From an uncultured Clostridia bacterium (GTDB lineage Bacteria > Bacillota > Clostridia > TANB77 > CAG-508): a stretch of 64,000 bases of DNA. The DNA lies in the NCBI GenBank assembly GCA_963556825.1, contig CAUWAM010000005.1:2609-66608 (forward strand), given 5' to 3'. The position numbers were made by a program, and so were the translations under genes. The notes beneath the pieces were generated by a model, which saw only the letters and a program-made list of their open reading frames with translations, searched no databases and was not told where the DNA came from. Shown piece by piece: positions 6,857 to 32,878 of this stretch. Positions within the stretch are counted from its first letter, which is position 1; each line of letters starts with the position of its first letter.

Positions 6857-9800
6857 CAATATTACCTCCGTTAATAAAATTTATTTTTTTAAAATAGTCC
6901 ATATATCTAATAATATAATTTTTATCAATATCTTGCCAATCAAATGATAAGAGTTTTAAATATTGCTCTGTAAAAGATGCATGTAATCGTACATCATATG
7001 TATAAATTAGCTTTTTACTTTCATCTAAATCATAAATTATGCCAGATAATATATCTTTTTTATTATTATCAGATAATATACCAGTAAGTAAAGATGAAAA
7101 CATATCATTAGGCATTGGCAAAATATCGTAATTTAAACTCTTTAATGTTTCAATTAGTAAAGGTATTGGTAATAATTTAGTATTATATATATGAAAAACA
7201 TTGCATTTACTATTATGATTTAAGATTTTTATAATAGCATCTGAAGCTAAATCAACAGGAGTTAGTTCTATAGAATGTTTTAACATATATTTTGGAGCGG
7301 CTCCTATTTCAACAAATGATTTAATTCTTTTAGCAAAAGCGTTATTATCAACATTTTGTTGAAATACACCATCAGAATACCTATTGGTAATATTACCTAA
7401 TCTTAATATTTGAGCATCTAGCCCATTATATATAGCTTCTAACACAATTAATTCTGCTCTATATTTTGTTGTTGTATAAATACCTTTAATTTTTTGACCA
7501 ACAAATAAATTAGTCTCATAAAATTGTTTTTTATTATTTATATTTTCAGGAGTTTCTACTATTGCTTCTTCTTTTTCACCACTGCCTGAAACACTCATAG
7601 TAGATATATGTAATAATCTTTTGTTTTCTTTTTTACAGAAATCTACAACATTTTTTGTTCCTTTAACATTAATTTCTTCAAATTCATTTTTTAATCCATA
7701 ATGTTTTACTATAGCACCAGAATTTATAATAACATCAATATTATTTTTTAATAAATTATAATCATAATTAGATAATCCTAAATTTTCTTTTGTTATATCA
7801 CCAGTAATAACTTGAATCCTTTTTAAGAAATCGTTTATGTATTTGTCACCAAAATAGAATGTTAAGGTTTGTTTTAATCGATCAACAGGATTAATATTGT
7901 TTTTTGGTCGTATTAAACAATAAAGAATTCCAGAATTTTGTTTTAAAAATTCATCAATAATATGTGAACCTAGAAAACCAGTACTTCCAATTAATAGAAT
8001 ATTGTTTACTTTAACAGGAACAATAGTTGAAAAATTATCTATATTATTTCTAGCTAATACACTATTTATTTTATTATAATCATAATTTTCAATAAAACTT
8101 ATTTCTGAAGATGGTAATTTATTAGATAATTTTTTTATTGTTGGATAATTAAATATATCAGCATATTCAAAAGAAAGACCATATTTAATAGCTTCTATCT
8201 GCATTTGAATTGCAGAAATTGAGTCTCCACCAATATCAAAAAAATTATCATTTATATTAATGTCATCTATTCCTAAAATATTTTTCCAAATTTGTAGTAA
8301 TTTTTCTTCGTTTGAATTTAATTCATCAATATTTATCTCTTTACTAGGTATGGTTTTATGTAGGTTAGGTAAAGGAAGTGCTTTTCTATCTATTTTTCTG
8401 TTTATAGTATAAGGCATTTTATCTAATCTAATAATATAAGCAGGAATCATATATTGAGGAAGAGCTTCTTTTAATGTTTCTTTTACTAATGATTCTGAAA
8501 CAGAAGAGTTAGAAACATAATAACCACACAAAACTTCTTTGCCATTAATTTCTATTTTGTTTACTATAGAGTCAGTAACTCCATCAATATTATGCATAAT
8601 ATTTTCAATTTCGCCGAGCTCAATTCTTAATCCTCTTAATTTTATTTGATTATCTAATCTTCCTAAACATTGAACCTTGCCATCAAAAGTCCATCTACCA
8701 ATATCACCAGATTTATATATTTTTCCACTACCAAAAGGATTATCTAAAAATTTAGATGCTGTCATTTCAGCTTTTCCAATATATCCAAGACCAACTTGAA
8801 TTCCTGAAATATAAATTTCACCAATTACACCTATTGGGACCGGTTTCATATTTTTATCTAATATATGAATTTGAGTATTCATTATAGGAGGTCCTACGGT
8901 TATCTCTTTTTCTCCGTTTAGATTTTGTACATTTGAAAGTATTGTAATTTCACTAGGACCATAAATATTATAAATAGTAATATCACTTGATAAAGTTTTT
9001 AAGTCTTTTACAAATTTTTCTGGTAATGGTTCTCCTCCAAACACCATATTTTTAACTAAAGCCAATGCCGAATCTGGTTCTCTATTATCATAATTAATTT
9101 TCATTAAACTTGGAGTAACAGTCATAACATCAACATTGTATTTTCTAATTAAAGCATCTAACAATTTTGGGTTTCTATGTTCAGCATTATTTGCCATTAC
9201 AACTGTTAGTCCATGGGTTAATGATACAAAAATTTCATATACAAATATATCAAAAGGTGTTGATGTAACTGATGCTAATGTATGCTTATTCCCATCTCTT
9301 AAATAATCTAAAGCTTTTGTCATTGCTTTAGCCATATTGGCAAAACCAACTTGATGTAACATAACTCCTTTTGGAGTTCCTGTTGAACCAGAAGTATAAA
9401 TTATATAAGATAAATCATATGGTTCAACTTTTATGTTTGGATTTTCACAAATTTTATTATATAATTCATTATTATCTAAATCAATTTCAAGACAATTTTC
9501 AATAGTATCTACTCTATCTTTTAAATCTTTTTGAGTTAATACATATTTTGTTTTACTATCTTGAATATAGTATTTTGTACGCTCAATAGGATAAGTTGGA
9601 TCAACATTGAAAAATGCAGCACCAGCTTTTAAAATACCAAGCATACAAATTATAGTTTCTAAAGAACGATTTGTCATAATACAAACAATATCATTTCTTC
9701 CAATTCCTTTTGATATTAACAAACTTGCTAAACTATTAGCTTTATTATTTAAATCTTTATAAGTTAATGTTTTATTATCACAGATTAATGCTATATCATT

Positions 9801-12800
9801 AGGAGTTTCTACTACTTGGTTTTCAAATAAAGATATAATAGTATCATTATTTATTGGAGAAGAGGTATTATTAAAAGTATCTATTAATTCTTTTTCCTTT
9901 GGCGTTATTATATTAGTAGTAGATATAACTTGTTCCGGTTTTTCTAATAAACTTTTTAATAGATAAATATAATGTTTTATGAAGTTTTCTGCAGTTTCGT
10001 ATTTAAATATATCTGTATTATATTCTAATCTAATTGTATTCATATCAGGTATAACTTCTAATAGTAAATTAAACTTTGAAGTTTTTGTATCTGGCCTTAA
10101 AATTTTAATGTTGTGATCATCTAATTTTAAAGTATCACTATGAGGAGTCTGATAAGTAAATACAACATCTAGTAAAGAATTAAAATTCAATTCTTTATTA
10201 AGTTTATCATATGGATATGGTTGATTTAGTAATGCTTCTTTAATTAATGTATGTGTTGAATTTAAAAATTCACTAAATGTTTTAGAAGTATCGAACATAT
10301 TTCTTAAAACAATATTATTAACAAACATTCCTATTATATTTTTTAATTCAGGCATTATACGTAAATCTGCTGGTGTTCCAACAATAATATCATTTTGACC
10401 AGTATATTTATAAAGTAAAATATAAAATACACTTATAAAAAATGTGTAAGGAGAAATACTAAATTTTTTAGAAAATTGATCTATAAGTTCAAATATTTTT
10501 TTATCAATATTTAAATTTATACTATCTCCATTAAATGATTTTATATTAGAAATTGCATAGTCATAAGGTAAATTTAATATTGGTAAATCATTATTATTAA
10601 ACTTATTTAACCAGTAATTTTCTATATTACTAATTTTATTACTATTTACAAAGTTATTTTCCCAAACAGTATAGTCTATATAATTAATATTTAGATTTTT
10701 AATTTTTTTACCATTATAAATTTTACAAAAGTCATTTAGTATAATAGATAGAGAAGTTCCATCCATTACAATGTGATGAGAATCAATTAATATTAAAGAT
10801 TGACCATTATTCAAAAAATATAGGGAAACTCTAAGAAGAGGGGCTTTGTCCAAATCAAATGGCTTTGGGAAATTATCAATTATTGCTTGTATATTATCTA
10901 TATTTTCTGTGTATGTTTTAATATCAAATTGTACATCATCTAAAACGGATTGATATGCTATTCCATCAATGGTTTTAAATATTGTTCTAAAAGCAGGTTG
11001 AACTCTAATGATTTCGGTAAATGCTTGTTTTACTTTATTCGAATCTAGTATAGTATCAATTAAAAATCCACAAGATACATTATATACTGTTGAATTTTTA
11101 TCAATTTTTGAAACATAAAACATTTCTTTTTGTGAATAAGAAAGTGGGTAATAATCTTGTTTTTGAGCTTTCCCAATATGTTTTATATCAGTTTTTGAAG
11201 AGGAAACTATTAAGTTTGATAATTCAACGAGTGAATGTATTTCATATAAATCTTTTATAGAAAGGCTTACACCAAATTGTTCTTGGATTTTATATGAAAG
11301 ATTAATAATTCCGATAGAATCTAGACCGATATTAAATAAATCATCTGTTGTACTTATATTATCACTAGGTACAATAGTTGAAATAATATCATATAATTTT
11401 TGTTCAGTATCATTTTTAGGTAAAGTTTTTTCTTTAGAAACTTTTACTAAATCAAGATTCAAAGCTTTTCTATCAATTTTTCCATTTGGTGTAGTAGGTA
11501 AGTCATCTAAATGGATAAAATATGTAGGCATCATGTATATAGGTAGCTTACTTAGTAAGTATTTTTTTAATTTATCAATATCTACATTTTCAGTTGATGT
11601 ATAATATGCACAAAGAAATTGCATATTTTCTGAATTTTGGCAAGCTACAACGCAAGATGAAATACCTTTAAAAGTGGATATTGAGTTTTCTATTTCTCCT
11701 AATTCTATTCTATATCCTCTAAATTTAACTTGAAAATCAGCTCTACCCATATGAATGATTTCTCCATTAGTATTATAATAAGCTAAATCATTAGTGTTAT
11801 ATAGAAGTTGATTTTTAATGTAATCTAAATGTATAAATTTTTCATTTGTTAAGGAATCATTATTAAAATAACCTTTAGATACACCTTCTCCACCTATATA
11901 TAAGTTACCTATTACAAAAGGAGGAAGGAGATTAGCGTTTTTATCTAAAATATAACATGTTGTATTTGCAATTGGTTTTCCAATTGTTATATTATCTTCA
12001 TAAGTTAAATCTTTAAATGTAGACCACACTGTGGTTTCTGTAGGGCCATATACATTAAAAATATTTGCATTAGAAGAATTTTTTAGTTGTATTAATAATG
12101 TGTCAGGGAAAGATTCTCCACCAACAATAATATCTTGTAATTTTTTTAAATAGTCTAAAGAAGACGTATCCTTAAAAAAAGCCAAAAAACGAGATGGAGT
12201 AGTTTGCATCATAGAAACATTATATTTTAAACACAATTTATTAAAAGCATGTACATTTTTTTGTTCGGTTTCGTTTGCTATAATTACTTTTAATCCATTA
12301 GTTAAAGAACACCAAAGTTCTAATCCAAAAATATCAAAACAAATGGTTGTTAAAGAAACCATAGTTTTATTTTTAGAAAAGTTTATTTTTTGTGATATAC
12401 CCATAATGAAATTGCTAAAATTGTTATGAGTTATCATGACACCTTTTGGATTTCCTGTAGATCCAGAAGTATATATTAAATACATTAATTGCATTGGTGA
12501 AATGTTTAAATGTAAATTATTAGTATTATTAAAATTAAATATATTTTCTGTATTAGAAATATTAATTTTTTTATAGTTTTTTGATATTAAATTTTCTGTA
12601 TTATTATTTACTAAGACAAATTTTGCATTACTAGTATCTAATATATAAGAAATTCGCTCAGAAGGATAATCCGGGTCTATAGGTAAATATGCAGCACCTG
12701 ATTTTAAGATACCTAATAAACCAATAACCATTTCTAAAGAACGATTAATTAAAATTCCAATAATGTCATTGTTTTTTATTCCAGAATATACTAAATAATT

Positions 12801-19362: not shown

Positions 19363-22300
19363 ATGAACTTAAAAAAATTATGCATCACTATAATAATGAG
19401 CACAATTTTATTTACTACAACAGTTTTTGCAGAAAACTTAAACACAGAATTAACAACAAACAAAGAAGAAATTCAAGCGAGCAAAGAAGAAGAAATTGTT
19501 CTTAATTTAGAAATTAAGGATTTTCAAGAAATTGAAAGTGGATTATACGCATATAAAGGGCAAATTCAATATGATAAGAATGTTTTTTATGAATTAGAAA
19601 CAAATAGTTTTGAAACTAAAAACATGTGGACAAATTTTAAATATAATAAACAAAATAATGAATTTGTGCTAATAAAAAAAGCAGGAACAACTAATGCAGA
19701 AGAAGTTTTACAAATAAAGTTAAAAGTAAGAAATGATGCAAAAGCAGGAGATTCAAGTATAATAATTAAGAATCAATCAACTTCAGAGGGAAAAAAAGAT
19801 ATAAGGATACAAGATTCAAAAATAGATATTAAAGTTATCCAGGAAGATAATAATACAGACGGTAATAATAATTCTGGAACAGACGATAATGATGATAATA
19901 ACAATTCAGAAAATAATAATCCCGGGACAGGAAATAATGAAAATAACAACAATTCTGGTAACAATAATCAAGAATTAGGGAAACCTTCAACAGAAATACC
20001 AAAAACAGGATTAGGAAATCATCAGACACTTATTGTTATTGCAATAGAAATATTAGTAATTATTGCAGGATATTCATTTATAAAATATAAAAAAATAGAT
20101 AAGAAAATAAAAATTAAAAACAAAAAAATAATAGGAATGCTTTTAGCAGTTGTATTTACTGTACAAATAGCAGGAACTACATATGCAGTAGTTAAGAATA
20201 TTGTACAAAAAGGAGAATTAAATGGAGATGGATTAATTGACTACGCTGATGTGGGATTAGTTGAAAAACATTTAATACAACTTGAAAAATTACCAGATGA
20301 AAATTTAGAAAATGCAGATTTAAATGATGACAAAAAAATAACAATAACAGACTTAACACTTTTAATAAAAAAGATAGAGAATAAAAGAGAATATATAGTA
20401 AAACTAGAAAATATTAGTGCAGACAATTACTATCCAAATAAAAATGAAGAAATAAAAGTATCGTTTATAGCAAATATAAACTACGAAGATACATTGATTA
20501 GAAAAGTAATAATAGATGATGTAGAATATGAAGTAGAGACATTAAATGGACGCGAATATACATTTATGATAAATGTAGGAGACAAAGCAGAGAAAAAAGA
20601 CTTTAAATTTTCAAAAGTAATACTTTCTACAAATGAAGAAGTAAAAATAGATTATGACTTTTCAATAAGTGTATTAAAAGAAAGACCATTTATGGATGAA
20701 AAAAGTTATAAACTAGAAGAAACTTTTGAAGGAAAAGCAAATATTAGCTTTGACTTAATTGATACAGAAAACAGCATTATTTCTGCACAATTTACTACTT
20801 ATGAAAAAACAGGAATAGAAGGAGAAAGTAAAGCAGTAGTTCAAACACCTATAAAAGCAGGAAACAATAAACAAGAAATACCAGTACAAGATGGAAAAAC
20901 TTATATAGTTAATATAGAAGTAGACTATAATTTAGCACCAGAGCAATTGCCAGGAAATGAATACAAAGGAGAAAGCATTATCTATTCAAAAGAATTTACA
21001 ATGAATTTAGATTATAAGTTTAAAATATCTAATATAAAAACATTAAAAGATGAGCTAGCAAATACAATCTTTACAAGAGAAGAACAAATTCAAGTTTCTT
21101 TTGATAGTACAAATGCAGCATTCGAAGATACAAAAAACAATACTTTTAAGCCAACTACAGTAACAATTAATGGAAAAGAATATCAAGTAACAGAAAAAGA
21201 TAATCATTATATAGCTACAATAGATGGAATAGAAGCTCTAGGAAATCAAACAATAACAATAGAAAAAGTAAAACTTGGAAATGGAAAAGAATTTAGTTTA
21301 GACAAAAATAACAGTGTTCAAGTTAGAATAGAAGAAAAGAAACCAAGTATAACTGATTTTGAAGCAGAAGAAAATTTGCCAGAAAGAAATATTAAAATTA
21401 AATTTAATATTGTAGATGAAGTAAAGGCAATACAAAGTGCAAAAGTTGTACTTTATGATTGTAAAAATAATGTGATCGAAAGCAAAAATTTGAGCATAGA
21501 AGAAATTAGAAGTGGAACAATAGAGGCAACTTTAAAAACAAAAGAAACGATAAAATATCTAGTACAAGTAATTGCAAACTATAGAGTAACAGATATAGAA
21601 ATGACACAAGATAAGGTATTACTAGAAAAAGAAGTTCCAGCTACTATATATGCTAATATTAAACAAGCAGAGATAGACAAAACAGAAATAGAAAAAAATG
21701 AAAATGTAAATATTACATATGAAATTGAAACTAATAGAGAGCAAACTATACAAAAAATTCGTGTAAACAGTGTAAATTATACAGCAACAAAATTAGCAAG
21801 TGGAAAATATAAAATTACAGTTAAAACTAGAAATGTACCACAAGTACTAAATCTTGAAACTACAAAACTTATATTTGTAGATGGATGGGAAGCAGATGTT
21901 ACAAATACACTACAGGTTAATATATTAAAAGAGATACCAACAATTAGTGATATAAGACAAGAAGATAGTGTAGGAAATCACGAAGTAACATTACATTTTG
22001 AAATAAATGATACAGATAAGAGTTATATTAGTGGAAAAGTCCAATTAGTAAATAAAGACCAAATCGTAGAAGAAAAAGAAATTACAATAGATGAAAATGG
22101 AAAAGGCACTGTTATTTTTACACATGTAGAAGAAAGTGTTGAATACACTGCAAAAGTTTTAGTTACATATAACAGATTTACGGAAACAGAAGAACATATT
22201 CAAAAAGACCAATTACTAGAAGAAATTCCAGTTATACTAATACATGATTATAAATTACAAGTAAGCGATTTAAAAACAGCCAATGCAAATAAAGAAACAA

Positions 22301-25300
22301 TATATTTTAATAAAAACGAAGAAATTATTTTAAGCTTTACTAGCACAAATGCCTCAAGATTTGTACCTGAAAGTGCAATAATAAATGGGAAAAACTATGA
22401 ACTTACAAGAAAAGTAGGAACAGATAAATGCTCAACTACATTACCAGGTTATAGTACAAGTGGAAAACAAGAAATAAAAATAGAAAAAATTATTTTATCA
22501 AATAGTGTAGAATTAAAACCTGCAAATGAAGAAAAAATCGAAGTAGAAGTTATAAAAGAAAAACCTATAATTACAGATTTTTCATATAATGAAGATGCAG
22601 AAAATCAAAACAAAATAAAAGCATATTTTATATTAAATGATAATGAAAATACACTTTTAAGTGGAAAAATTATTATTACAGATCAAAAGAAAAATGAAAT
22701 AAAAACACAAGACTTACAAGCAAATAATAATGAAATAATTTTTGATAAAACAGATAGTGAATATTACTATATTAAAGTAGTAGCAGATTACAATTTAGGA
22801 ACAGACCAAAATAATCTACATAAATCTCAAATTTTATTACAAGAAGAAATGGAATTTGCAATTCGTAAAATAGAAATGAAAGATATTTTAGATGTATATT
22901 TATACAGAAAAAATAGAGACAAAGTAGAAGAAGTATCAAGTATATACACTTATGAATTAACAAATACAGAGCAATTTTTAGTAAAAGTTGAAATGAAAGA
23001 CATGCCAGCTTTTTATGCTGCATTAAAAAGTTCTAGAGTAGAAAATAATATTTTAAAACTAGAATTAGAGTATGAAAATGCAGTTCAATATCAAAATGAT
23101 ATGAAGCAAGATAAACTAGAAGTAGACTATGGAACAGTAGAAAATGGCAAAGCTACTAATGATTCACTTGCAAGTTTAATAAGACAAATGAAAACAAATC
23201 CAAATGGAACATTTACATTAACAAGAGATTATGATGCATCAACATTTCTTGGTGATCACAGATCTCTAGTAGGAGCAGACATAACATTTACAGGAACATT
23301 AAATGGTAATGGACACAAAATATATAATTTATCTAAACCAATTTTTGACTATTTAGAAGGTGCTACTATTAAAGATTTAGTATTAGAAGATATTTATTTA
23401 TCTAATACAGATAATGTTACAGGAAGAGGAGCACTTGCAAACGAAACAGGAAAAAATTCTACTATAAGTAATGTGCATGTTAAAAATATGACAATTACAA
23501 CAGCATTAAAATATTCTTACTATGGAGGAATTACTGGAAAACTTATAAGCAGTACACTTAAAGAATGTAGTGTGACCAATCTTGTTATAACAGGACCACA
23601 CAATGATATTGTTGGAGCTCTAGGAGGAATTACAGGATATATTAACACATCTACTATTGAAAACTGCTATGTAACAGGTACTATTGCTGGAAAAACAGAA
23701 ATAGGAGGAATAGCAGGGTTAGTAGAAAGATATGTAGATGAACCAAGTAATATAAAAAATTGTATAACAAAAGTAAACTTAGAACCAACTGGTGGAGCAA
23801 ATGGAGTAGGTGGAATTGTAGGATTTGCAAGAAAGGCAAATCAAATTAAACTAAAACAAAATATAAGTTTATCACTAGGAAGAACTGGTTATAAATTATA
23901 TGGTACAGAAGCTACATTAGATATGTTTACAAAAAATTATGTGATGGAAGAATCTACATTATCAGATAATAACAGTTTACAAGTTAAGAAAATAGCTAAA
24001 AATGATGTTAATGAAGACTTCTTCAAAAATAAAGCAGGATTTGACGAAAGTATTTGGGATTTAAAAGACAGCAATTATGATAAATTACCAACACTTAATA
24101 ATGCAGATCCAAATAATACAAAAGAAGAACAACAAGAACAAGATGGTAATTGTTATATTCCAGACAAGGCTCGACTAGAAAAAATGCTAGAATATAATAA
24201 AAACAAGGAAATGTTATATAGTAACTTGTATAAACTAATGCCATTTTATGATGCTAAATATTTAATATTAGATGGAAGAAAAATTAATGAGGACAATATT
24301 TTAAATAAACAAACAATTAAGACAGTATTACCATATGATAATAAAGAAAACTTACTAATTGCACTTACAAAAGAAAACTATAAGACAATTAGTAAAATAA
24401 AAGTAGTATTTAATAATGATGAAACAAAAGAATATACAGTAAAATTTAGAGATACTTACGGAAATGTAGCAAATTATCAAATTAATGAGTTACAAGTTGG
24501 TTATAATTTTAATACATATATTATAGAACAAAATGCAGGTGTTGTAAGAGAACTAAGTAATTATATTCAAAACCTAGAATATGAAAAAGACTTACAAGGA
24601 ATGGTAGCTCTAGATAGAGGACATCCAGCATATAAAGTGCATTTTAATGAAGTTATAAGAACAGCAGAAAATTCTAATAATTTTATTTATAAATATTTAT
24701 CAAATTCTCCTGGATACAGTGTAACAGTAGACAATGATATCTTAAATACAGTTATAAAAGATAAATTAATTAATAATAACCAAATAAAGAGAATTCTATT
24801 TGCATATAATTATTATTCTCGTTTTTACGGAATAGATATGAATGGAACAAACTTATCAGATGTAATGCTATTTAAAGGAGAACTATACAAAGAAAATACA
24901 AAAATTGATAATTTAGTAACAGAATTCTGGAATAGTAAATGGAAAAACAGCCATGTAAATTACCAATTCTATAGAGATACACTAGCACCTAGATTTGGTA
25001 TAGAAAAACTTGGAGATTTTATAGAATATAATGTTAAAATTTTAACAGATTATGAAGATCCAAATAACTGGTTTACAGATAATTTTAATGGGCTTTTAGT
25101 AGAAGCCCCAGCAAAAGGATATGAAGATGTTGTAGATTACAGAGCATGGACACAATTAAAGAAAAGAAATGATTATATATTAGCACTTCTAACATTACCA
25201 GAAAATGCAGGATATATGATATCAACACCGGCAGCTTTTTATGTAGGATCACAAAGAGTATATATAACAGACCCTACAAAGCCAGTACAACAACAAGATT

Positions 25301-28300
25301 TATTAACTAAAATGCAAAACTTTGCAAATCAAGTAGCAACATTTTATGGAACAGCAGCAGGATTTATCGAAAGTAGATATTTTAACGCTATATGCGACAT
25401 AGTAATAGATACTAGATTTTTACCAGAACTTGGGGAACAATCAAATGGAAAAACAAATGATTTATTCCATAAGAACTTTAATGAAATCTTAAATTCATGG
25501 TCTTTGATAGGTGGAGTAGGAGCTTATGCAGGAAGCCAAAGAATCTATTTTGTAACAAACCATGCACTAAATAGTTATTCAGTGTGGTCACATGAAACAG
25601 GACATAACCAAACAGCTAGATTATTTTTTAAAAATAATGGATTTAGACCAATTGGTGGAGGAGCATCAGCAGATGGTATAACTGGTTCAGAAGATTACAC
25701 AGATGGAAATACTTCGCAAGGATTTGGAGATGGAGAAGTAAACTTCAATTTAACTTACAATTACAGTGAAGATCAATTAATAACAACAAACTTAACACCA
25801 GAAAGAATAAATTCTAAAGAGAAAATTGAAAGCTATTATAAGAGAATGTTTGAAATAATTGACTTTTTAGATTATGTAGAAGCAAAAGCCTTTTTAGAAT
25901 TAACACCAGAAGAACAGTCAAAAATAGCAGTGCAAATTTACTATCCAAATGAACCAGGAGATTATTCAACAGTAGGATGGAAAACGCTATCAAAAGAAGA
26001 ATTTGAAAAAATGAATTTACAAACAGTAGATGACTTATGGAAAAATAGAATTACTATAAAACCAGGAGTAACAGGAAATACAACGCAAACAGGAATAGGC
26101 GACTATGGTTCAGAAGGTATGTATATAAGAAGATGGTACCAACCATATAACGAAAAAGGAAGAACACATACTTTCGGATTTAAATATACAGCTTGGCAAA
26201 TGCTTGGAATAGGCGGTTATGACGGTGGATATGTTACATATTATAGTGGAAAAAGTAGAGATGACTTAGATGCTATTAAAAAAGTAACAAAAGACGATAC
26301 AATGACATGGGAAAAATTTAAGAAGCAGCGTTATGAATTAATGCAAGATAATTGGAATACAACTCCATACATAAATGCAGATGAATTATTAGATACTTAT
26401 GTAAAAGCATTGAAAAATGATGCACAAAATGGTGATAGAAATGTTACAAATAGTACAAATGTTAGAAGAAGAAATTATCACTATGTAAAACGTGTAACAG
26501 ATGACTTTAGACAAGAAGTTTTAAATGGAGACCATGGTATTGAAAGAATTTACATAACAACAGCAGAAGAATTTAAGCAAAAAATAACAGAAAATTCAAC
26601 AGGATATTTTGTATTAAATAATGACATTGATGTATCTTCTTTAACTGGAACAAATGCGATTATAAATGGATATTTCATGGGGAAAATAGATGGACAAGGA
26701 CATAAAATAACAGGAAATACACTACCAATTTTCGATTGCTTAAAATTTGCACATATTTCTAACTTAAATATAGAAAACAGTAAAATTTCTAACACAGTAG
26801 CAGATGTAGGAGCTTTAGCTAGAAAAGCAGAATATAGTGAAATTGAAAATGTAATTGGAAAGAAAATATCACTTACATCAACTAATAAACAAATTGGTGG
26901 ACTAATTGGAAGTGTGACAAGTTCATTAGTTAAAAATACACATATAACAGAAGCTACAGTATCTGGAGATTCTAGAGTTGGTGTACTTGCAGGTTATGTA
27001 GGACAAAGCCAAGTAGAAGAAAGTACAGCAAATGGAAAAGCAACATCAAAAGGAAATGCAACAGGAGGATTTATAGGAGAAATTTACAATAAAACTACAA
27101 TTTTAAACTGCTATTCAGTAGGAGAAGCAAAAGGAAACCAAGACATTGGAGGTTTCATAGGATATGTAAATAATTCTTCTATTATAAACAGCTTTAGTAA
27201 TACAAAAGCAACAGGAAATGCAGGAACAGCAAGTTTTGTAGGACAAACTATAAATAATAGTATTATTAAAAATAATATTACATTAACAAACCAATTATCA
27301 GGTTATAAATTTGATGGTAGAACAGCTAATGACAAATTTACAAACTTTAGTGGAAACTATGAAAATAAAGGAAACATAGGAACATCTACATTAACAAGAC
27401 CAAACATAGACTTTACAGATAAAATAAGTGTGGCAGAAGAAAGTGATGTACAAAGCCCAAGTTTCTATACAGGAACTTTAAATTGGGATAGTAGCATTTG
27501 GGACTTTAACAAAGTACAAACAGGAGGATTACCAAAATTAAAAAATTCAGATCCTAATGACATTTCAAGTACAGTATCAAGATATGAAATTAGAACAGCT
27601 AATGAATTTGAAACATTATTAAAAGAACATCCAGATAGTATCTTTAGTATAGAGGAAGATATTGACTTATCTACATTAAACTTAACTAATAAAAACACAA
27701 TTATTAGTGGAGATTTTATGGGAAGAATAGAGGGAAATAATCATACTTTAAGTGAAAATACAAAACCAATATTTGAAAACTTAAAATATGCTCGTATTTC
27801 AAATCTTAAAATAGAGGGAAGTATAATTTCTTCAGGAACTAAAAATATAGGAGCACTTAGTCAAAAAGCAAATAATGCAGAAATAAAAAATATAGTAGCA
27901 AATAACATAAAAGTAAATTCTACTAATAGCGAAGCAGGTGGCTTAATTGGTACAATATCAAATTCAAGTTTAGAAAATGTTCATATTACAAATTCTAAAG
28001 TATCAGGAACTAGCAGAATAGGATTGATTACTGGTTATGCTACAGAAAATACTAATATCAAAGCATCTAGTAGTAATGGAAATGTTATTGCTACAGGAAA
28101 TACAGTTGGAGGATTAGTTGGAGAAGTAGCAAATTCTTCTAGAATAGAAAATAGTTATTCATTAGGAACAGCACAAGGAAATACTAATGTTGGAGGGATT
28201 GTAGGATTATTAATAAATTCTTCTATTACAAAAAGCTTTAGTAGAGTAAGTGCTAATGGAGAAAATGCAGTAGCAGGATTTGTAGGAAAATCAACAAACA

Positions 28301-29697
28301 ATTCTACAGTGCAAAACAATATTTCACTTGGAAATCAAAACAAACAATATAAATTTGATGGAGCAACAACAGAAAAAGATTTAAGTAGATATCAAGGAAA
28401 TTATGAATATGAAGGAACTGTAGGAACTTCTACATTAGAAAGAAAAGATATTAACTTTGCTGGAAAAATAAATGTTGCAACAAAATCAGATATTACTAAT
28501 ATAGATTTCTATAAAAATATTTTAGGGTGGAGCCAAGAAATTTGGAATTTAAAAGAAGTTGTAAATGAAAAAGTTCCAAAATTAAAAAATCTAGATCCTA
28601 ATGAAGAAACTCTTATAACAGTAGTAGTAGAAAATATAAATTCAGCAGACGAATTTATAGAAAAATTATCAAAAAGACCAGATGGTAAATATACAATAAT
28701 GAAAGATTTAGATTTTGCAGGAAAAACATATAAAGTAGGAAGTGTATTAATACCAGGAGTATTCTTTGGTAGAATTGAAGGAAACGGATATACGATAAAG
28801 AACTTAAGTAATGCAACTATATTTGAACAATTTAATGGAGAAGTACAAAACTTAAATATCAAAAACTTCCAACACGGTGTTGTTTGGAACAAACCACCGT
28901 ATGGACATCTTGTTTCAACAGGTGAAAGTGATAAAACTCAAAATAATGTATCTGCTTTTGCAAAGAAATCATCGAGTGCGAAATTCTACAATATGAGATT
29001 AGAAAGAATCATTATGTTTGGAAACAACAATCTTGCAATAATAACAACAAATGACAAAGATTCTACTTTTGAAAAAATAAGTGTAACACAAGCACTTGTA
29101 ATGACAGCTTCAAAGGCTAAAGATTGTGGAAATAAGGCATCAACATTTATCAGTGAAAAAACAGGAGGAAGTATCAAGAACTGTTATGTTCAAGGAGAAA
29201 TGCACTCAGCAGGAAATGATAGTGGTGCAATTATAGGACTAAGCCACGGAGGAGTTATTATTGAAAATGTAGTATCTAATATTATTGGTAGAGCTTATAT
29301 AGAAGAAGTTGGTAAAACAAGTGGATTATTTATTGGAAAAATTGATGGAAAAACAATAATTAAGAATTCTGTATCAATAGGAAAATTACAAACCAATGGA
29401 TATTTATTAAATAAATTTGCTAACATACCAAATGTAGAAAATATTGAATATATTACAAATTCTTATGAAAATGGAGCAGAAAATGGAATTTCTAATAGTA
29501 ATGGTATAAACATAAAAACAGCAACAAAAGAACAATTACTAAACAAGGAATTCTACACAGATGTACTACACTTCGATGAGAGTATATGGAATTTAGATAA
29601 TATACAACAAAGAATTTATTCAGAAAGCCCATATCCACATAGTACAGACCCTACAAAATTTCCAACTATAATAGATTTTGGTGGATTAAAAAAATAA
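19363..29697 (+). CDS. giant (3444 aa) multidomain surface zinc metallopeptidase, Zmp/IgA-protease (M26)-like, with cohesin and dockerin modules
   Basis: Uninterrupted ORF with RBS gggaagaaggga and signal peptide MNLKKLCITIIMSTILFTTTVFA. Domain evidence is given in the sub-features. Confidence 0.9.
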   Translation: MNLKKLCITIIMSTILFTTTVFAENLNTELTTNKEEIQASKEEEIVLNLEIKDFQEIESGLYAYKGQIQYDKNVFYELETNSFETKNMWTNFKYNKQNNEFVLIKKAGTTNAEEVLQIKLKVRNDAKAGDSSIIIKNQSTSEGKKDIRIQDSKIDIKVIQEDNNTDGNNNSGTDDNDDNNNSENNNPGTGNNENNNNSGNNNQELGKPSTEIPKTGLGNHQTLIVIAIEILVIIAGYSFIKYKKIDKKIKIKNKKIIGMLLAVVFTVQIAGTTYAVVKNIVQKGELNGDGLIDYADVGLVEKHLIQLEKLPDENLENADLNDDKKITITDLTLLIKKIENKREYIVKLENISADNYYPNKNEEIKVSFIANINYEDTLIRKVIIDDVEYEVETLNGREYTFMINVGDKAEKKDFKFSKVILSTNEEVKIDYDFSISVLKERPFMDEKSYKLEETFEGKANISFDLIDTENSIISAQFTTYEKTGIEGESKAVVQTPIKAGNNKQEIPVQDGKTYIVNIEVDYNLAPEQLPGNEYKGESIIYSKEFTMNLDYKFKISNIKTLKDELANTIFTREEQIQVSFDSTNAAFEDTKNNTFKPTTVTINGKEYQVTEKDNHYIATIDGIEALGNQTITIEKVKLGNGKEFSLDKNNSVQVRIEEKKPSITDFEAEENLPERNIKIKFNIVDEVKAIQSAKVVLYDCKNNVIESKNLSIEEIRSGTIEATLKTKETIKYLVQVIANYRVTDIEMTQDKVLLEKEVPATIYANIKQAEIDKTEIEKNENVNITYEIETNREQTIQKIRVNSVNYTATKLASGKYKITVKTRNVPQVLNLETTKLIFVDGWEADVTNTLQVNILKEIPTISDIRQEDSVGNHEVTLHFEINDTDKSYISGKVQLVNKDQIVEEKEITIDENGKGTVIFTHVEESVEYTAKVLVTYNRFTETEEHIQKDQLLEEIPVILIHDYKLQVSDLKTANANKETIYFNKNEEIILSFTSTNASRFVPESAIINGKNYELTRKVGTDKCSTTLPGYSTSGKQEIKIEKIILSNSVELKPANEEKIEVEVIKEKPIITDFSYNEDAENQNKIKAYFILNDNENTLLSGKIIITDQKKNEIKTQDLQANNNEIIFDKTDSEYYYIKVVADYNLGTDQNNLHKSQILLQEEMEFAIRKIEMKDILDVYLYRKNRDKVEEVSSIYTYELTNTEQFLVKVEMKDMPAFYAALKSSRVENNILKLELEYENAVQYQNDMKQDKLEVDYGTVENGKATNDSLASLIRQMKTNPNGTFTLTRDYDASTFLGDHRSLVGADITFTGTLNGNGHKIYNLSKPIFDYLEGATIKDLVLEDIYLSNTDNVTGRGALANETGKNSTISNVHVKNMTITTALKYSYYGGITGKLISSTLKECSVTNLVITGPHNDIVGALGGITGYINTSTIENCYVTGTIAGKTEIGGIAGLVERYVDEPSNIKNCITKVNLEPTGGANGVGGIVGFARKANQIKLKQNISLSLGRTGYKLYGTEATLDMFTKNYVMEESTLSDNNSLQVKKIAKNDVNEDFFKNKAGFDESIWDLKDSNYDKLPTLNNADPNNTKEEQQEQDGNCYIPDKARLEKMLEYNKNKEMLYSNLYKLMPFYDAKYLILDGRKINEDNILNKQTIKTVLPYDNKENLLIALTKENYKTISKIKVVFNNDETKEYTVKFRDTYGNVANYQINELQVGYNFNTYIIEQNAGVVRELSNYIQNLEYEKDLQGMVALDRGHPAYKVHFNEVIRTAENSNNFIYKYLSNSPGYSVTVDNDILNTVIKDKLINNNQIKRILFAYNYYSRFYGIDMNGTNLSDVMLFKGELYKENTKIDNLVTEFWNSKWKNSHVNYQFYRDTLAPRFGIEKLGDFIEYNVKILTDYEDPNNWFTDNFNGLLVEAPAKGYEDVVDYRAWTQLKKRNDYILALLTLPENAGYMISTPAAFYVGSQRVYITDPTKPVQQQDLLTKMQNFANQVATFYGTAAGFIESRYFNAICDIVIDTRFLPELGEQSNGKTNDLFHKNFNEILNSWSLIGGVGAYAGSQRIYFVTNHALNSYSVWSHETGHNQTARLFFKNNGFRPIGGGASADGITGSEDYTDGNTSQGFGDGEVNFNLTYNYSEDQLITTNLTPERINSKEKIESYYKRMFEIIDFLDYVEAKAFLELTPEEQSKIAVQIYYPNEPGDYSTVGWKTLSKEEFEKMNLQTVDDLWKNRITIKPGVTGNTTQTGIGDYGSEGMYIRRWYQPYNEKGRTHTFGFKYTAWQMLGIGGYDGGYVTYYSGKSRDDLDAIKKVTKDDTMTWEKFKKQRYELMQDNWNTTPYINADELLDTYVKALKNDAQNGDRNVTNSTNVRRRNYHYVKRVTDDFRQEVLNGDHGIERIYITTAEEFKQKITENSTGYFVLNNDIDVSSLTGTNAIINGYFMGKIDGQGHKITGNTLPIFDCLKFAHISNLNIENSKISNTVADVGALARKAEYSEIENVIGKKISLTSTNKQIGGLIGSVTSSLVKNTHITEATVSGDSRVGVLAGYVGQSQVEESTANGKATSKGNATGGFIGEIYNKTTILNCYSVGEAKGNQDIGGFIGYVNNSSIINSFSNTKATGNAGTASFVGQTINNSIIKNNITLTNQLSGYKFDGRTANDKFTNFSGNYENKGNIGTSTLTRPNIDFTDKISVAEESDVQSPSFYTGTLNWDSSIWDFNKVQTGGLPKLKNSDPNDISSTVSRYEIRTANEFETLLKEHPDSIFSIEEDIDLSTLNLTNKNTIISGDFMGRIEGNNHTLSENTKPIFENLKYARISNLKIEGSIISSGTKNIGALSQKANNAEIKNIVANNIKVNSTNSEAGGLIGTISNSSLENVHITNSKVSGTSRIGLITGYATENTNIKASSSNGNVIATGNTVGGLVGEVANSSRIENSYSLGTAQGNTNVGGIVGLLINSSITKSFSRVSANGENAVAGFVGKSTNNSTVQNNISLGNQNKQYKFDGATTEKDLSRYQGNYEYEGTVGTSTLERKDINFAGKINVATKSDITNIDFYKNILGWSQEIWNLKEVVNEKVPKLKNLDPNEETLITVVVENINSADEFIEKLSKRPDGKYTIMKDLDFAGKTYKVGSVLIPGVFFGRIEGNGYTIKNLSNATIFEQFNGEVQNLNIKNFQHGVVWNKPPYGHLVSTGESDKTQNNVSAFAKKSSSAKFYNMRLERIIMFGNNNLAIITTNDKDSTFEKISVTQALVMTASKAKDCGNKASTFISEKTGGSIKNCYVQGEMHSAGNDSGAIIGLSHGGVIIENVVSNIIGRAYIEEVGKTSGLFIGKIDGKTIIKNSVSIGKLQTNGYLLNKFANIPNVENIEYITNSYENGAENGISNSNGINIKTATKEQLLNKEFYTDVLHFDESIWNLDNIQQRIYSESPYPHSTDPTKFPTIIDFGGLKK
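19432..19845 (+). other. cohesin-like beta-sandwich domain (aa ~24-161)
   Basis: EIVLNLEIKDFQEIESGLYAYKGQIQYDKNVFYEL...LQIKLKVRNDAKAGDSSIIIKN resembles cohesin-domain proteins of Firmicutes. Assigned by eye only. Confidence 0.55.
19849..19980 (+). repeat. Asn/Asp/Gly-rich low-complexity stalk (coding)
   Basis: NNTDGNNNSGTDDNDDNNNSENNNPGTGNNENNNNSGNNNQ. Confidence 0.8.
19996..20187 (+). other. internal sortase-type sorting signal (IPKTG + TM + Lys-rich tail) followed by a second hydrophobic, signal-peptide-like segment
   Basis: IPKTG at 19996-20010, TM LIVIAIEILVIIAGYSFI, tail KYKKIDKKIKIKNKK, then IIGMLLAVVFTVQIAGTTYA with an AxA-like site ending at 20187. Confidence 0.75.
20212..20376 (+). 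other. type I dockerin (two Ca-binding repeats)
   Basis: GELNGDGLIDYADVGLVEKHLI and ADLNDDKKITITDLTLLIKKI match the duplicated DxNxDGxIDxxD dockerin repeat. Confidence 0.85.
20398..22810 (+). repeat. four tandem ~200-215-aa two-domain (Ig-like) units
   Basis: Unit starts are near 20398, 21013, 21650 and 22249. Each unit has an xxING/VxY.VT segment followed by (E/K)KP.ITDF...Y.V.V.ANY/DYNL. Confidence 0.7.
23158..24120 (+). repeat. GLUG-motif beta-helix-like module 1
   Basis: FTGTLNGNGHKIYNLSKPIF, IGGIAGLV, VGGIVGFA, ending IWDLKDSNYDKLPTLNNADPNN. Paralogous to the modules at 26551-29694. Confidence 0.65.
24120..26540 (+). other. Zmp/M26-like zinc metallopeptidase region with HExxH at 25591-25605
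   Basis: SVWSHETGHNQTARLF (HETGH, aa 2077-2081). The flanking GLUG modules and the N-terminal sorting signal are hallmarks of streptococcal IgA1-protease/ZmpB-type enzymes. Confidence 0.6.
26551..29694 (+). repeat. three further paralogous GLUG modules (about 26551-27560, 27582-28605, 28621-29694; the last is divergent)
   Basis: Each starts with (T/S)A(E/D)EF...D(I/L)D...G.F.G.I(D/E)G.GH.I/L and contains IGGLIG/VGGLVG/VGGIVG-type motifs. The first two end in LPKLKN.DPN. Confidence 0.7.
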
Positions 29698-29753: not shown

Positions 29754-30317
29754 ATGAATAAGAAAAATATAATTATAATAGCAATTATATTACTAATTAT
29801 AGTAATTGCTTTAGGAACAATACTTACAAACCAAAAACCAAAAACAAAATTAAATCCAATAGAAAAACAGGAAGACTTATCAACATTAATTAACGAAATA
29901 TATAAAGGAAAAGAAGGAACATTGCCTAGATTAAACACACAATTTATAGACCCAACAGATACTGATAGTGTAAAAAATTCAACTGGACTAGAAAACGGAA
30001 ATGATTTACAATATATTGCTGTATCTGAACCAATGATGAGTTCACAAGCATATTCACTTGTACTGGCAAAAGTAAAAGATGGAGTTAATGCAAATAGTAT
30101 TGCAAAAGACATGTCAGAAAAAATAGACACAAGAAAATGGATATGCGTTTCAGCAGAAAAGCTTTATGCAACAAGTAGTGGAGATGTAGTATGTTTAGTA
30201 ATGTCTAGTGAAGAATGGGCAAAACCTGTTTATGAAGGATTTAAAACATTAGCAGGAACAGTTCAAGAAGAATATACAAAAACAGAAGAACTTCCAGAAC
30301 TACCAGAAGAATTATAG
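29754..30317 (+). CDS. DUF4358-like lipoprotein/secreted protein
   Basis: 187 aa with an N-terminal TM/signal sequence. It sits in front of MBOAT+DHHW genes, as commonly seen in Clostridia. Family assignment is from memory. Confidence 0.5.
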   Translation: MNKKNIIIIAIILLIIVIALGTILTNQKPKTKLNPIEKQEDLSTLINEIYKGKEGTLPRLNTQFIDPTDTDSVKNSTGLENGNDLQYIAVSEPMMSSQAYSLVLAKVKDGVNANSIAKDMSEKIDTRKWICVSAEKLYATSSGDVVCLVMSSEEWAKPVYEGFKTLAGTVQEEYTKTEELPELPEEL

Positions 30318-30324
30318 TAAAGAA

Positions 30325-30364
30325 ACAGGACATGATTAAATTTTACATGTCCTGTCTTTATTTT
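30325..30364 (+). terminator. hairpin + T-run after the DUF4358 gene (possible attenuator before MBOAT)
   Basis: Perfect 10-bp stem acaggacatg/catgtcctgt followed by ctttatttt. Confidence 0.55.
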
Positions 30365-30382
30365 AAGATATAAGGGGGATTT

Positions 30383-31774
30383 ATGGTATTTTCGAGCGTA
30401 ACATTTTTGTTTTATTTCTTACCAATTGTTTTGATAACATATTATTTAGTACCAAATAAGTATAAAAACACAGTTTTATTAATTTCATCTTTTGTATTTT
30501 ATTTTTATGGAGAACCAAAAAAAATATATATAATGATATTTTCTATAATTTTTACATATTTTTTTGGAGTGTTAATTGATAAATACAAAGGAACAAAGTA
30601 TGCTAAAATATTTTTAATATCAGATATTTGTATAAGTATAGGATTGTTAATTTACTTTAAATATACAGATTTTATAATTAAGAATATAAATTTATGGTTA
30701 ACGAACAAACTAGATTTAATACATGTAATATTGCCAATAGGAATTTCTTTTTATACTTTCCAAATGATAAGTTACATAGTTGATGTATATAGAGGCGAAG
30801 CAAAGGTACAAAAAAATATTTTTAAATTAGCTACATATGTATCACTATTTCCACAATTAATTGCAGGTCCAATTGTTAGATATACAACAATAGAAAATCA
30901 ATTAGACAATAGACAATATAACATGAAAAATTTTGCAATAGGTGTAAGAAGATTTATAATAGGTCTAGGCAAAAAAGTTATGATTGCAAATATAATAGGA
31001 AATTTAATTAGCATTTTTTCAGCAAGTGGTGAAAAAAGTGTGCTATTTTATTGGCTATATGCAATATCTGTAATGCTACAAATATATTTTGATTTCTCAG
31101 GATACTCAGATATGGCAATAGGACTAGGAAAAATGTTTGGATTTGAATTTTTAGAAAATTTTAACTATCCATATATAGCAACAAGCATAACAGACTTTTG
31201 GAGAAGATGGCATATTTCCTTAAGTACATGGTTTAGAGACTATGTATATATTCCATTAGGAGGAAACAGAGTAAACAAATTGAAATGGCTTCGTAACATA
31301 ATAATTGTTTGGCTACTAACCGGTTTATGGCATGGAGCAGAATGGAATTTTGTTATATGGGGATTATATTTTGGAATATTGCTAATTATAGAAAAAATAA
31401 TTTTACTAAAATGCTTAAAAAATACACCTAAGATTATTAACAGAATATATACACTATTTATTGTAATGATTAGTTTTATAATCTTTAATGGAGATGGAAT
31501 ATCTACAATACTAGAAAATATAGGAGGATTATTTGGGATTGCAAATATACCACTAATAACAAATGAAAGCATATATTACCTAAAAAGCTATGCAATCGTA
31601 ATTATAGTAGGAATTATAGGAGCAACACCAATATGCAAAAAAATAGCAAATAAAGAAAGATTAAAGAAAATAATAAATATAATTGAACCAATATGTTTAC
31701 TATTAATACTTGTTATAAGTACAAGCTATATTGTAGATGGGTCATTTAATCCATTTTTATATTTCAGATTTTAA
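30383..31774 (+). CDS. MBOAT-family membrane O-acyltransferase (AlgI/DltB/PatA-like)
   Basis: 463 aa and polytopic. Contains FWRRWHISLSTWFRDYVYIPLGGNR and GLWHGAEWNFVIWG with the conserved His. Confidence 0.9.
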   Translation: MVFSSVTFLFYFLPIVLITYYLVPNKYKNTVLLISSFVFYFYGEPKKIYIMIFSIIFTYFFGVLIDKYKGTKYAKIFLISDICISIGLLIYFKYTDFIIKNINLWLTNKLDLIHVILPIGISFYTFQMISYIVDVYRGEAKVQKNIFKLATYVSLFPQLIAGPIVRYTTIENQLDNRQYNMKNFAIGVRRFIIGLGKKVMIANIIGNLISIFSASGEKSVLFYWLYAISVMLQIYFDFSGYSDMAIGLGKMFGFEFLENFNYPYIATSITDFWRRWHISLSTWFRDYVYIPLGGNRVNKLKWLRNIIIVWLLTGLWHGAEWNFVIWGLYFGILLIIEKIILLKCLKNTPKIINRIYTLFIVMISFIIFNGDGISTILENIGGLFGIANIPLITNESIYYLKSYAIVIIVGIIGATPICKKIANKERLKKIINIIEPICLLLILVISTSYIVDGSFNPFLYFRF

Positions 31775-31785
31775 GAGGTGAAATA

Positions 31786-32878
31786 ATGCAAGAAAACAAG
31801 AAAAATATATTAATTTCTATAGGATTTATCTTAATTTTAACAATAGTTTTTGTTACAAATATTTTAAGCAAAGATAAAGAAATATCAATTGCAGAAAGAA
31901 GAAAGTTAGTACAATTTCCAGAAATTACAACAAAAAGAATATTAAATGGAACAGTATCAAAAGAATTTGAAGAATATGCAATGGATCAATTGATAGGTAG
32001 AGACATGTTAAGAAGTATAAAAGCATTGTTTAATTTTGGAATATATAGACAAAAAGATAACAATAAGCTCTTTATAGAAAATGATAGTATTTATAAAATT
32101 GAATATCCATTAAAAGAAGAATTGATAGAAAAAACTGCAAAACAAATTAACCAAATAAAAGAAGAGTATTTAAAAGGAATGAATGTATATTATTCTATTA
32201 TTCCAGACAAAAACTATTTTTTAGACAATAGTAATTTAAAAATAGATTATGAAAAACTACAAAACATAATAAAACAAAATTTGAAAGATATTAAATACAT
32301 AAATTTATTCCCTGAATTAAGTAGTCAAGATTATTATAGAACAGATATACATTGGAAACAAGAAAATCTTAGAAAAGTTGTAAGTGAAATAGAAAAAGAA
32401 ATGAACTTAAAAGATACATCAAAAATAGAGTATGAAGAAAAAGAATTAGATGATTTTTATGGTGTGTATTATGGTCAAATAGGAGTAAAAGTAGAGCCAG
32501 ATAAAATAAAATATTTAACAAATGAAACCATAGAAAAGTGTATCACATATAACTTTGAGACGAAACAAGAACGGAAAGGTTTATGATTTAGAAAAATATA
32601 AAACATCAACGGATAAGTACAATTTATATTTGTCTGGACCAACAGCTATAATAACTATTAATAATCCAAATTTATCTACAAAAAAAGAATTGATATTATT
32701 TAGAGATTCGTTTGGTAGTAGTATAGCTCCATTATTAATAGAGAATTATAGTAAAATAACTTTGATAGATTTTAGATATATTAATAAAGAATTACTAAAA
32801 AAATATATAAAATTTGAAAATCAAGATGTATTATTTTTATATAGTGTTCCGGTTTTAAATAGTGGAATATTAAGATAA
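31786..32878 (+). pseudogene. DHHW-family (AlgJ/AlgX/PatB-like) extracytoplasmic acyltransferase partner, split by a 1-nt frameshift at 32572-32574
   Basis: The N-terminal ORF has a signal anchor and YYRTDIHW. The C-terminal ORF (frame +1) has FRDSFGSS. Removing the C of GAA-C-GGA gives a continuous NFETKQEGKVYDLEKY. Confidence 0.8.

Follow-up and report, generated by a model that had tools for sequence, protein, structure and literature searches.

A giant M26-type protease precursor of gut Clostridia with a built-in cohesin and dockerin: a candidate self-docking surface enzyme

Contig CAUWAM010000005.1 of an uncultured Clostridia bacterium (assembly GCA_963556825.1) was analysed over a stretch of 64,000 nucleotides, referred to here as the window, which has a G+C content of 25.7%. 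It contains the gene of a giant metalloprotease precursor in which a cohesin module and a dockerin module share one reading frame, with a sortase-type sorting signal and a second hydrophobic segment between them. The precursor is probably processed into an anchored cohesin and a protease headed by the dockerin, the protease re-docking onto the cohesin at 1:1, where we infer the binding and both cleavages. An earlier note on this DNA, made from the sequence alone, had suggested that the product is a self-docking surface protease, and that interpretation is supported by the comparative evidence presented here.

Modules of the precursor and their conservation

According to the list of open reading frames (ORFs) and the translation, the gene is a single uninterrupted frame of 3444 amino acids (aa). 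Its features are given below in window coordinates, where TM1 and TM2 are the transmembrane (TM) or hydrophobic segments that follow the first signal peptide and pLDDT is the predicted local distance difference test score of AlphaFold2.

19363..29697, +: whole precursor gene, 3444 aa, one ORF
19363..19431, +: signal peptide 1, aa 1-23, with a KK n-region, a hydrophobic core and TTVFA/EN; hydropathy segment 6-22
19432..19845, +: cohesin module, aa ~24-161, predicted extracellular; from Pfam PF00963, a profile match and AlphaFold2/Foldseek
19846..19995, +: Asn/Asp/Gly-rich disordered stalk, aa 162-211; from composition and AlphaFold2 pLDDT <50
19996..20010, +: IPKTG sortase-type motif, aa 212-216; from the translation and the ortholog alignment
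20020..20082, +: TM1, aa 220-240, predicted hydrophobic part of the sorting signal, stop-transfer; from hydropathy, and a helix at 220-242 in the AlphaFold2 model
20083..20127, +: Lys-rich loop KYKKIDKKIKIKNKK, aa 241-255, predicted cytoplasmic; 9 Lys and 1 Asp, net +8 in 15 residues
20128..20187, +: TM2, aa 256-275, putative internal signal peptide with a predicted signal peptidase I site after A275; ends QIAGTTYA, an end conserved among orthologs
20212..20376, +: type I dockerin, aa 284-338, starting KGELNGDG; from Pfam PF00404, PDB matches and AlphaFold2
20395..22764, +: spacer of repeated beta-rich modules, aa ~345-1134; weak Y_Y_Y and Ig_J matches only
22765..26268, +: M26 metalloprotease region (IgA1-protease/Zmp-type); from Peptidase_M26_N, PDB alignment and HETGH
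26512..29694, +: C-terminal extension with further M26_N/GLUG-like repeats, visible in the translation; boundaries approximate

The domain order and the coordinates that the earlier note had read from the letters are all correct by the translation and a hydropathy scan. As it had stated, no stop codon separates the two halves, the frame running through 3444 codons. The ATG at nucleotide 20137 (aa 259) is the sole in-frame start codon from IPKTG to the dockerin. It lies inside the hydrophobic core of TM2 with an AGGA directly abutting it and zero spacer, which is how the note had described it. A separate protease made from an internal start at this ATG was considered and ruled out, since the AGGA has no spacer and the ATG is within the hydrophobic core.

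Orthologs were sought by scanning one genome per bacterial species, which gave 19 loci with 34-77% identity to the query. They come from uncultured human and mouse gut Clostridia, including Clostridium sp. CAG:273, with one metagenome-assembled genome labelled Erysipelotrichaceae. The cohesin, the hairpin and the dockerin follow one another in one frame at all 19 loci; the survey of one-ORF versus two-ORF arrangements that the earlier note had called for therefore returned a single ORF in 19 out of 19 species-level genomes. In addition, 1.84 billion cluster representatives were scanned with HMMER using a profile of the head, the N-terminal part of the precursor that includes the dockerin. This produced 3184 matches at E<=0.001 and 155 at E<=1e-30. 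The order cohesin, hydrophobic segment, hydrophobic segment, dockerin is present in 91 of the 196 proteins collected, and 88 of these 91 non-redundant heads have two hydrophobic segments. The proteins that carry them reach 6181 aa, many with an HExxH motif ~2000 residues in. A plasmid megablast of window positions 19000-23000 gave zero matches.

The cohesin assignment made in the earlier note, for which it had proposed a Pfam check, stands. Pfam PF00963 (Cohesin) matches aa 40-146 with an E-value of 1.4e-5 and 25.7 bits against a cut-off of 24.1 when aa 1-175 are scanned. Scans at E<=1 of the full-length protein or of aa 1-338 do not list a cohesin; this miss with the longer queries is a search artefact and does not count against the cohesin. 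PF00963 is matched by all 20 aligned sequences (the query and 19 orthologs), with a best E-value of 3.5e-10, and the family profile matches the cohesin chain of the Coh-OlpA/Doc918 complex (3ul4_A, E=0.0012). The cohesin domain has a pLDDT of 75-96 across two AlphaFold2 models. In Foldseek comparisons of these with the PDB, the top 19 matches of the first model and the top 33 of the second are all cohesins, with TM-scores of up to 0.77, and include the non-cellulosomal cohesins of Clostridium perfringens. By AlphaFold2 and Foldseek the predicted fold is thus that of solved cohesins, a nine-stranded beta-sandwich.

Conservation within the cohesin, assessed over the 91 heads, is strongest in strands beta-3, beta-5 and beta-6. 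W89 is invariant, and Y70, D71, Y94, N95, S141 and D146 are nearly so. Strands 8-3-6-5 form the dockerin-binding sheet of the cohesin in solved type I complexes. The conservation of the cohesin is therefore concentrated on its dockerin-binding sheet. As a separate observation, the automatic annotation of giant proteins may overlook cohesins of this kind, which could explain why the architecture went unremarked.

The two-repeat type I dockerin that had been proposed at aa 284-338 is likewise borne out. Pfam Dockerin_1 (PF00404) matches aa 286-338 with an E-value of 1.4e-8 (35.2 bits, cut-off 22.9), and sequence matches to this segment in the PDB are nearly all dockerin modules or dockerin-bearing enzymes. 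Both calcium loop and helix repeats can be read, as E285-N287-D289-D293-D296 and D319-N321-D323-T327-D330, and D296, D319 and D330 are invariant in the 91 heads.

Between the two modules, the aligned sequences share a common topology. Signal peptide 1 is present in all 20, and the hydropathy scan finds three hydrophobic segments in every one of them. The stalk that follows the cohesin has Asn at 21 of the 45 residues in aa 162-206, and its length differs among the orthologs in the alignment. A motif of the form [LI]PxTG, with Ile as the first residue in the query, occupies the aligned position in 19 of the 20 sequences (the query and 18 of the 19 orthologs). The loop between TM1 and TM2 is basic, as read directly in several orthologs. 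Under the positive-inside rule basic loops are cytoplasmic, and the Lys-rich loop is therefore predicted to be cytoplasmic. The end of TM2, Q-x-x-G-[TS]-[TV]-[YF]-[AG], is retained in 20 out of 20 sequences, and the predicted cleavage site there is 55-59 residues past the Gly of the motif in the 19 sequences that have one. A small-x-small end of TM2 persists even in very divergent heads, where VYA/FG, ALA/LG and NVNA/MG occur right before the dockerin. In the one ortholog without the motif, L018 (CAOJNP010000021.1, 296-1426), [LI]PxTG has been lost (...EEKITRTKKIYIWLLF...), with TM1, the basic loop, TM2 and the dockerin retained.

The cargo of the precursor belongs to the M26 family, as indicated by an M26 N-terminal domain, GLUG repeats, an HExxH motif and homology to solved IgA1 proteases. 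Peptidase_M26_N is matched by Pfam at aa 1135-1374 (E=2.7e-43), and over the whole protein there are four Peptidase_M26_N stretches and six GLUG. About 1140 aa can be aligned to the solved IgA1 proteases 7uvk, 6xja and 6xjb (E~1e-41), which are the enzymes of Gemella haemolysans and Streptococcus pneumoniae. The HETGH sequence is at aa 2077-2081 (nucleotides 25591-25605). The NCBIfam models for ZmpA-D (NF046017/19/21/24) give partial matches of 107-162 bits against a cut-off of 3000. By these scores, the cargo is a distant M26 relative outside the four named streptococcal enzymes ZmpA-D.

Relatives in other arrangements

A search with the cohesin only finds many small standalone relatives. These consist of a signal peptide, a cohesin, an Asn-rich linker, [LI]P[KQ]TG (or PKAG, DYAG), a TM segment, KKYK and a stop codon. 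The N-terminal 250 aa of the precursor resemble the complete product of such a standalone cohesin-LPXTG gene, and the N-terminal part is, by its layout and homology, a fused anchoring scaffoldin of the classical one-cohesin type. Standalone cohesin-anchor genes adjoin genes for large dockerin proteins in three independent contexts. In the first (L022), the neighbour encodes a protein with GH5, leucine-rich repeats (LRR) and a dockerin. The second (L023/L024) has the gene of a 1260-aa dockerin protein 38 bp from the cohesin gene, and in the third (L025) the adjoining gene encodes a dockerin protein of 1046 aa.

Split forms are also found. At L021 the upstream gene (2-1597) encodes a homologous cohesin with its own C-terminal dockerin, an adaptor type without LPXTG, and stops 24 nucleotides before a second gene. 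The latter starts with a short signal peptide (...LGVIYA/TN...), after which come a dockerin and repeats of the giant-protease family. The upstream gene of L020 (3-1346) ends in a dockerin as well. The L020 and L021 contigs are short and of low coverage. In the split relatives P0011 and P0013, the counterpart of TM2 serves as the N-terminal signal peptide of a separately encoded secreted protein, and the signal peptides of the split relatives end in ...G-x-x-Y-A, like TM2. This use of the counterpart as an N-terminal signal peptide is the best available evidence that TM2 is a cleavable internal signal peptide. Taken together, the fused, adjacent and split arrangements give support of the Rosetta-stone type for the cohesin and the dockerin as functional partners.

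The head is not restricted to M26 cargo. In P0120 it is attached to DUF4874 and DUF4832, and in P0169 and P0133 to a propeller of the BNR/Sortilin type. On a reading that we slightly favour over its negation, the head would be a "split-and-redock" cassette, portable and widespread: one ORF would make both anchor and cargo, the product would be cut during export and the parts would reassemble at 1:1 on the surface. M26 proteases, BNR propellers and DUF4874/DUF4832 enzymes of gut Clostridia may all have acquired such a cassette.

In the 2056-aa P0133 the cohesin-LPKTG-TM-TM-dockerin stretch is central (aa 1040-1348), preceded by ~1000 residues of LRR and followed by the BNR propeller. Processing of this protein would yield a wall-anchored LRR-cohesin adhesin and a docked enzyme. 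The HMMER set also contains two proteins, P0164 (836 aa) and P0181 (928 aa), that have a signal peptide, 8-9 tandem dockerins and a C-terminal anchor, the last being LPYAG with a TM segment in P0164 and a hydrophobic segment in P0181. These resemble an inverted scaffoldin built of dockerins.

Proposed processing and its alternatives

In the proposed scheme, signal peptide 1 would export the cohesin and the Asn-rich stalk until transfer is halted by IPKTG, TM1 and the Lys-rich loop, which together would act as a cell-wall sorting signal. The Lys-rich loop would double as the charged sorting tail and as the n-region of TM2. TM2 would then restart export as an internal signal peptide and be cut after TYA (A275). 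Cleavage by sortase at IPKT/G would link Thr215 of the cohesin-stalk to peptidoglycan, and where a family member lacks the motif, the cohesin would be kept in the membrane by TM1. The M26 metalloprotease so released, of ~3170 residues, would begin at ~V276, 8 residues ahead of the dockerin, and this dockerin would dock non-covalently on the cohesin, presumably in a calcium-dependent manner. The outcome would be a surface-tethered protease with a built-in 1:1 stoichiometry and with anchor and cargo co-localised. The likely benefit of the fusion would be this matched 1:1 stoichiometry together with capture at the site of export.

Evidence on binding comes from structure prediction, from the conservation of the dockerin-binding sheet described above and from covariation. 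An AlphaFold2 run with 16 paired diverse heads gave pLDDT values of 93-96 for the cohesin, 87-94 for the dockerin and 55-76 for the hairpin, with a predicted TM-score (pTM) of 0.66. It supersedes a run with 8 close sequences, in which only the cohesin was folded (dockerin pLDDT 28-40, pTM 0.42). The cohesin makes up 39% of the modelled chain and the 50-residue linker is disordered. With so small a share for the cohesin and a disordered linker, we estimate that a pTM of 0.66 requires the two modules to be confidently placed relative to each other in the model. In the covariation analysis (MIp), the ten strongest inter-domain pairs include three of the five that connect G143, D146 or I147 of the cohesin with I328 or T329 of the dockerin, which may be taken as a hint of binding only. 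The two dockerin residues occupy positions 10 and 11 of the second repeat, the canonical recognition positions.

Several points weigh against an anchored cohesin that recaptures the processed protease. Motif, hydrophobic segment and positive tail of the sorting signal are all readable in the sequence, with TIGR01167 (LPXTG_anchor) scoring 12.8 bits, below its cut-off of 15.9. A regular expression search for TLxTC over the ORFs of the 64-kb window found no sortase. Of the 91 heads, only 29 by a strict and 39 by a loose definition have a sortase-like motif before TM1. Wall linkage is therefore seen as an optional addition to the conserved core of the heads: cohesin, TM, loop, TM and dockerin. 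The docking in the AlphaFold2 model is taken from the pTM alone. The covariation is marginal: against 20 random re-pairings, no more than the two strongest pairs score above every one of them, the third ties with the null maximum, and the re-pairings leave phylogeny uncontrolled. The census of other cohesins and dockerins covers only the window and the 19 loci. Finally, the dockerin of a scaffoldin in a classical cellulosome does not usually bind the cohesins of that scaffoldin.

A different possibility is that the two modules are part of a wider cohesin-dockerin network, the cohesin displaying other dockerin proteins and the dockerin of the protease plugging into another scaffoldin. The homologous cohesins of the relatives do serve dockerins on other proteins, the cohesin gene upstream in L021 bears a different dockerin of its own, implying that this dockerin has another cohesin as partner, and Sca2 of Ruminococcus bromii binds many dockerins (PMC4611034). 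We consider such a network unlikely for the precursor. Neither the 64-kb window nor any of the 19 loci (~7-13 kb each) contains a further cohesin or dockerin, and the pair is strictly co-inherited over the 91 heads and their differing cargos. The pTM of 0.66 obtained with paired sequences also speaks against it, as does the recurrence of cassettes of one cohesin and one dockerin at L022, L023 and L025.

It is also conceivable, albeit quite unlikely, that no proteolytic separation takes place. The product would then remain a single chain that is held in the membrane by a two-helix hairpin, with its two large parts on the outside, and the cohesin and dockerin would form an intramolecular clasp or cause multimerisation in trans, rather than a tether. 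Such an uncut precursor would fit with the roughly two-thirds of the family that have no sortase motif, and with L018, where the motif is absent yet the hairpin is kept. Signal peptidase cleavage of TM2 is itself a prediction, and self-recognition of the Amy4 type has been proposed to cause multimerisation (PMC4611034). Against this, the small-x-small end of TM2 is conserved in even the very divergent heads, its counterpart in split relatives is a bona fide N-terminal signal peptide, and processing at a point downstream of LPXTG has been reported for streptococcal Zmps (PMC9637739). Cleavage and re-docking are preferred here over an uncut hairpin.

An artefact of sequencing, frameshift or assembly is ruled out, and a very recent, functionless fusion of an anchoring-scaffoldin gene and a protease gene, the alternative offered in the earlier note, is rejected as having a negligible chance of being correct: the N-terminal 250 aa are exactly like a complete standalone cohesin-LPXTG product, yet the frame is continuous in 19 out of 19 independent genomes from varied samples and hosts at 34-77% identity, the 91 heads have the same layout, and there is no usable internal start or ribosome-binding site.

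Known systems and neighbouring genes

The closest parallel in topology is that of the streptococcal Zmp enzymes, which have a signal peptide, an N-terminal LPXTG, two hydrophobic segments and a second signal peptidase site (PMC3518915). The mature IgA1 protease of pneumococcus begins 56 residues after LPXTG (PMC9637739). The atypical N-terminal LPXTG and hydrophobic segments that the earlier note had named as a precedent are therefore documented. The cargo of the precursor is of the same catalytic family as the streptococcal and Gemella M26 enzymes (IgA1 protease ZmpA, ZmpB, ZmpC, ZmpD). The same N-terminal topology elements can be seen in the sequence, with a spacing of 55-59 residues compared to 56 in pneumococcus, and, as in the Zmp family, the sorting signal is internal (aa 212-255 of 3444) rather than C-terminal. 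The precursor described here is much longer, at 3444 aa, than the streptococcal Zmps. Descriptions of the latter include a G5 domain and repeats, with no cohesin before LPXTG and no dockerin after the second segment (PMC3518915, PMC9637739).

The N-terminal fragment has the architecture of one-cohesin anchoring scaffoldins such as ScaE of Ruminococcus flavefaciens, Sca2 of R. bromii and cSca5 of Limousia (PMC4611034, PMC12997984). Unlike these, it has no stop codon after the basic tail: the frame continues through the putative internal signal peptide into the cargo, and a single translation product contains both anchor and cargo, which are not encoded by independent genes. In the mucinolysome, by comparison, dockerin-bearing peptidases and the cohesin-LPXTG scaffoldin are separate proteins (PMC12997984).

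The dockerin of R. bromii Amy4 has been shown experimentally to bind its own cohesin (PMC4611034), and Amy4 resembles the precursor in having enzyme, cohesin and dockerin in one polypeptide. Amy4 carries both modules at its C-terminus, with neither a membrane hairpin nor a sortase motif described between them, and its self-recognition is proposed to lead to multimerisation (PMC4611034). In the precursor, the modules lie on either side of a sorting signal and a putative internal signal peptide, and the proposed result is an anchor and a cargo. In C. lentocellum a single adjacent pair of cohesin and dockerin genes, Clole_2599/2598, forms a 1:1 complex (PMC13487519). The two-gene cassettes at L022, L023 and L025 are like this pair, which has two genes and a cellulase cargo in contrast to the one gene and protease cargo of the precursor.

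Among the papers searched, none links a dockerin or cohesin to M26, Zmp/ZmpB, IgA1-protease or IgA-protease enzymes, in agreement with the remark in the earlier note that the arrangement had not been described. Zmp-type topology and cohesin-dockerin assembly are each known; what is added is a built-in cohesin-dockerin pair that appears to provide surface retention. The scheme would unite two Gram-positive systems of surface display, the sortase/Zmp-type N-terminal sorting and cohesin-dockerin assembly, and a single precursor for anchor and cargo would guarantee matched stoichiometry and local capture. These are giant enzymes of the IgA1-protease family in abundant uncultured Clostridia of the human and mouse gut, and their retention at the surface bears on the degradation of IgA or mucin. 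If the scheme is true, it would offer a model for the surface retention of streptococcal Zmp and IgA1 proteases, in which the anchored N-terminal fragment holds the mature enzyme non-covalently. The ~345-residue head would also be a natural self-assembling tag for surface display, usable in engineered Gram-positive bacteria.

Other genes in the window include, at 6849-14363 on the reverse strand, a 2504-aa two-module nonribosomal peptide synthetase with two Condensation, two AMP-binding and two PP-binding domains and a terminal reductase (NAD_binding_4), from which it may, on the basis of this domain content, release a reduced dipeptide product. Beside it, also on the reverse strand, are a seven-transmembrane histidine kinase (5042-6859) and a response-regulator-HD protein (4056-4907). 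The synthetase gene is 5 kb from the giant protease gene, and any connection between them is speculation. At 14468-15655 on the forward strand, 3.7 kb upstream of the protease gene, is an HtrA/DegP-type serine protease with PDZ. A similar HtrA/DegP-type gene is near the standalone cohesin of L025, which may be coincidence.

Directly downstream of the protease gene, at 29754-32586 on the forward strand, are three genes:

from 29754, +: 187-aa ORF without a Pfam match, the first of the three
30383-31774, +: MBOAT O-acyltransferase
31786-32586, +: DHHW protein

From their family assignments, the MBOAT and DHHW genes look like a cell-envelope O-acylation pair.

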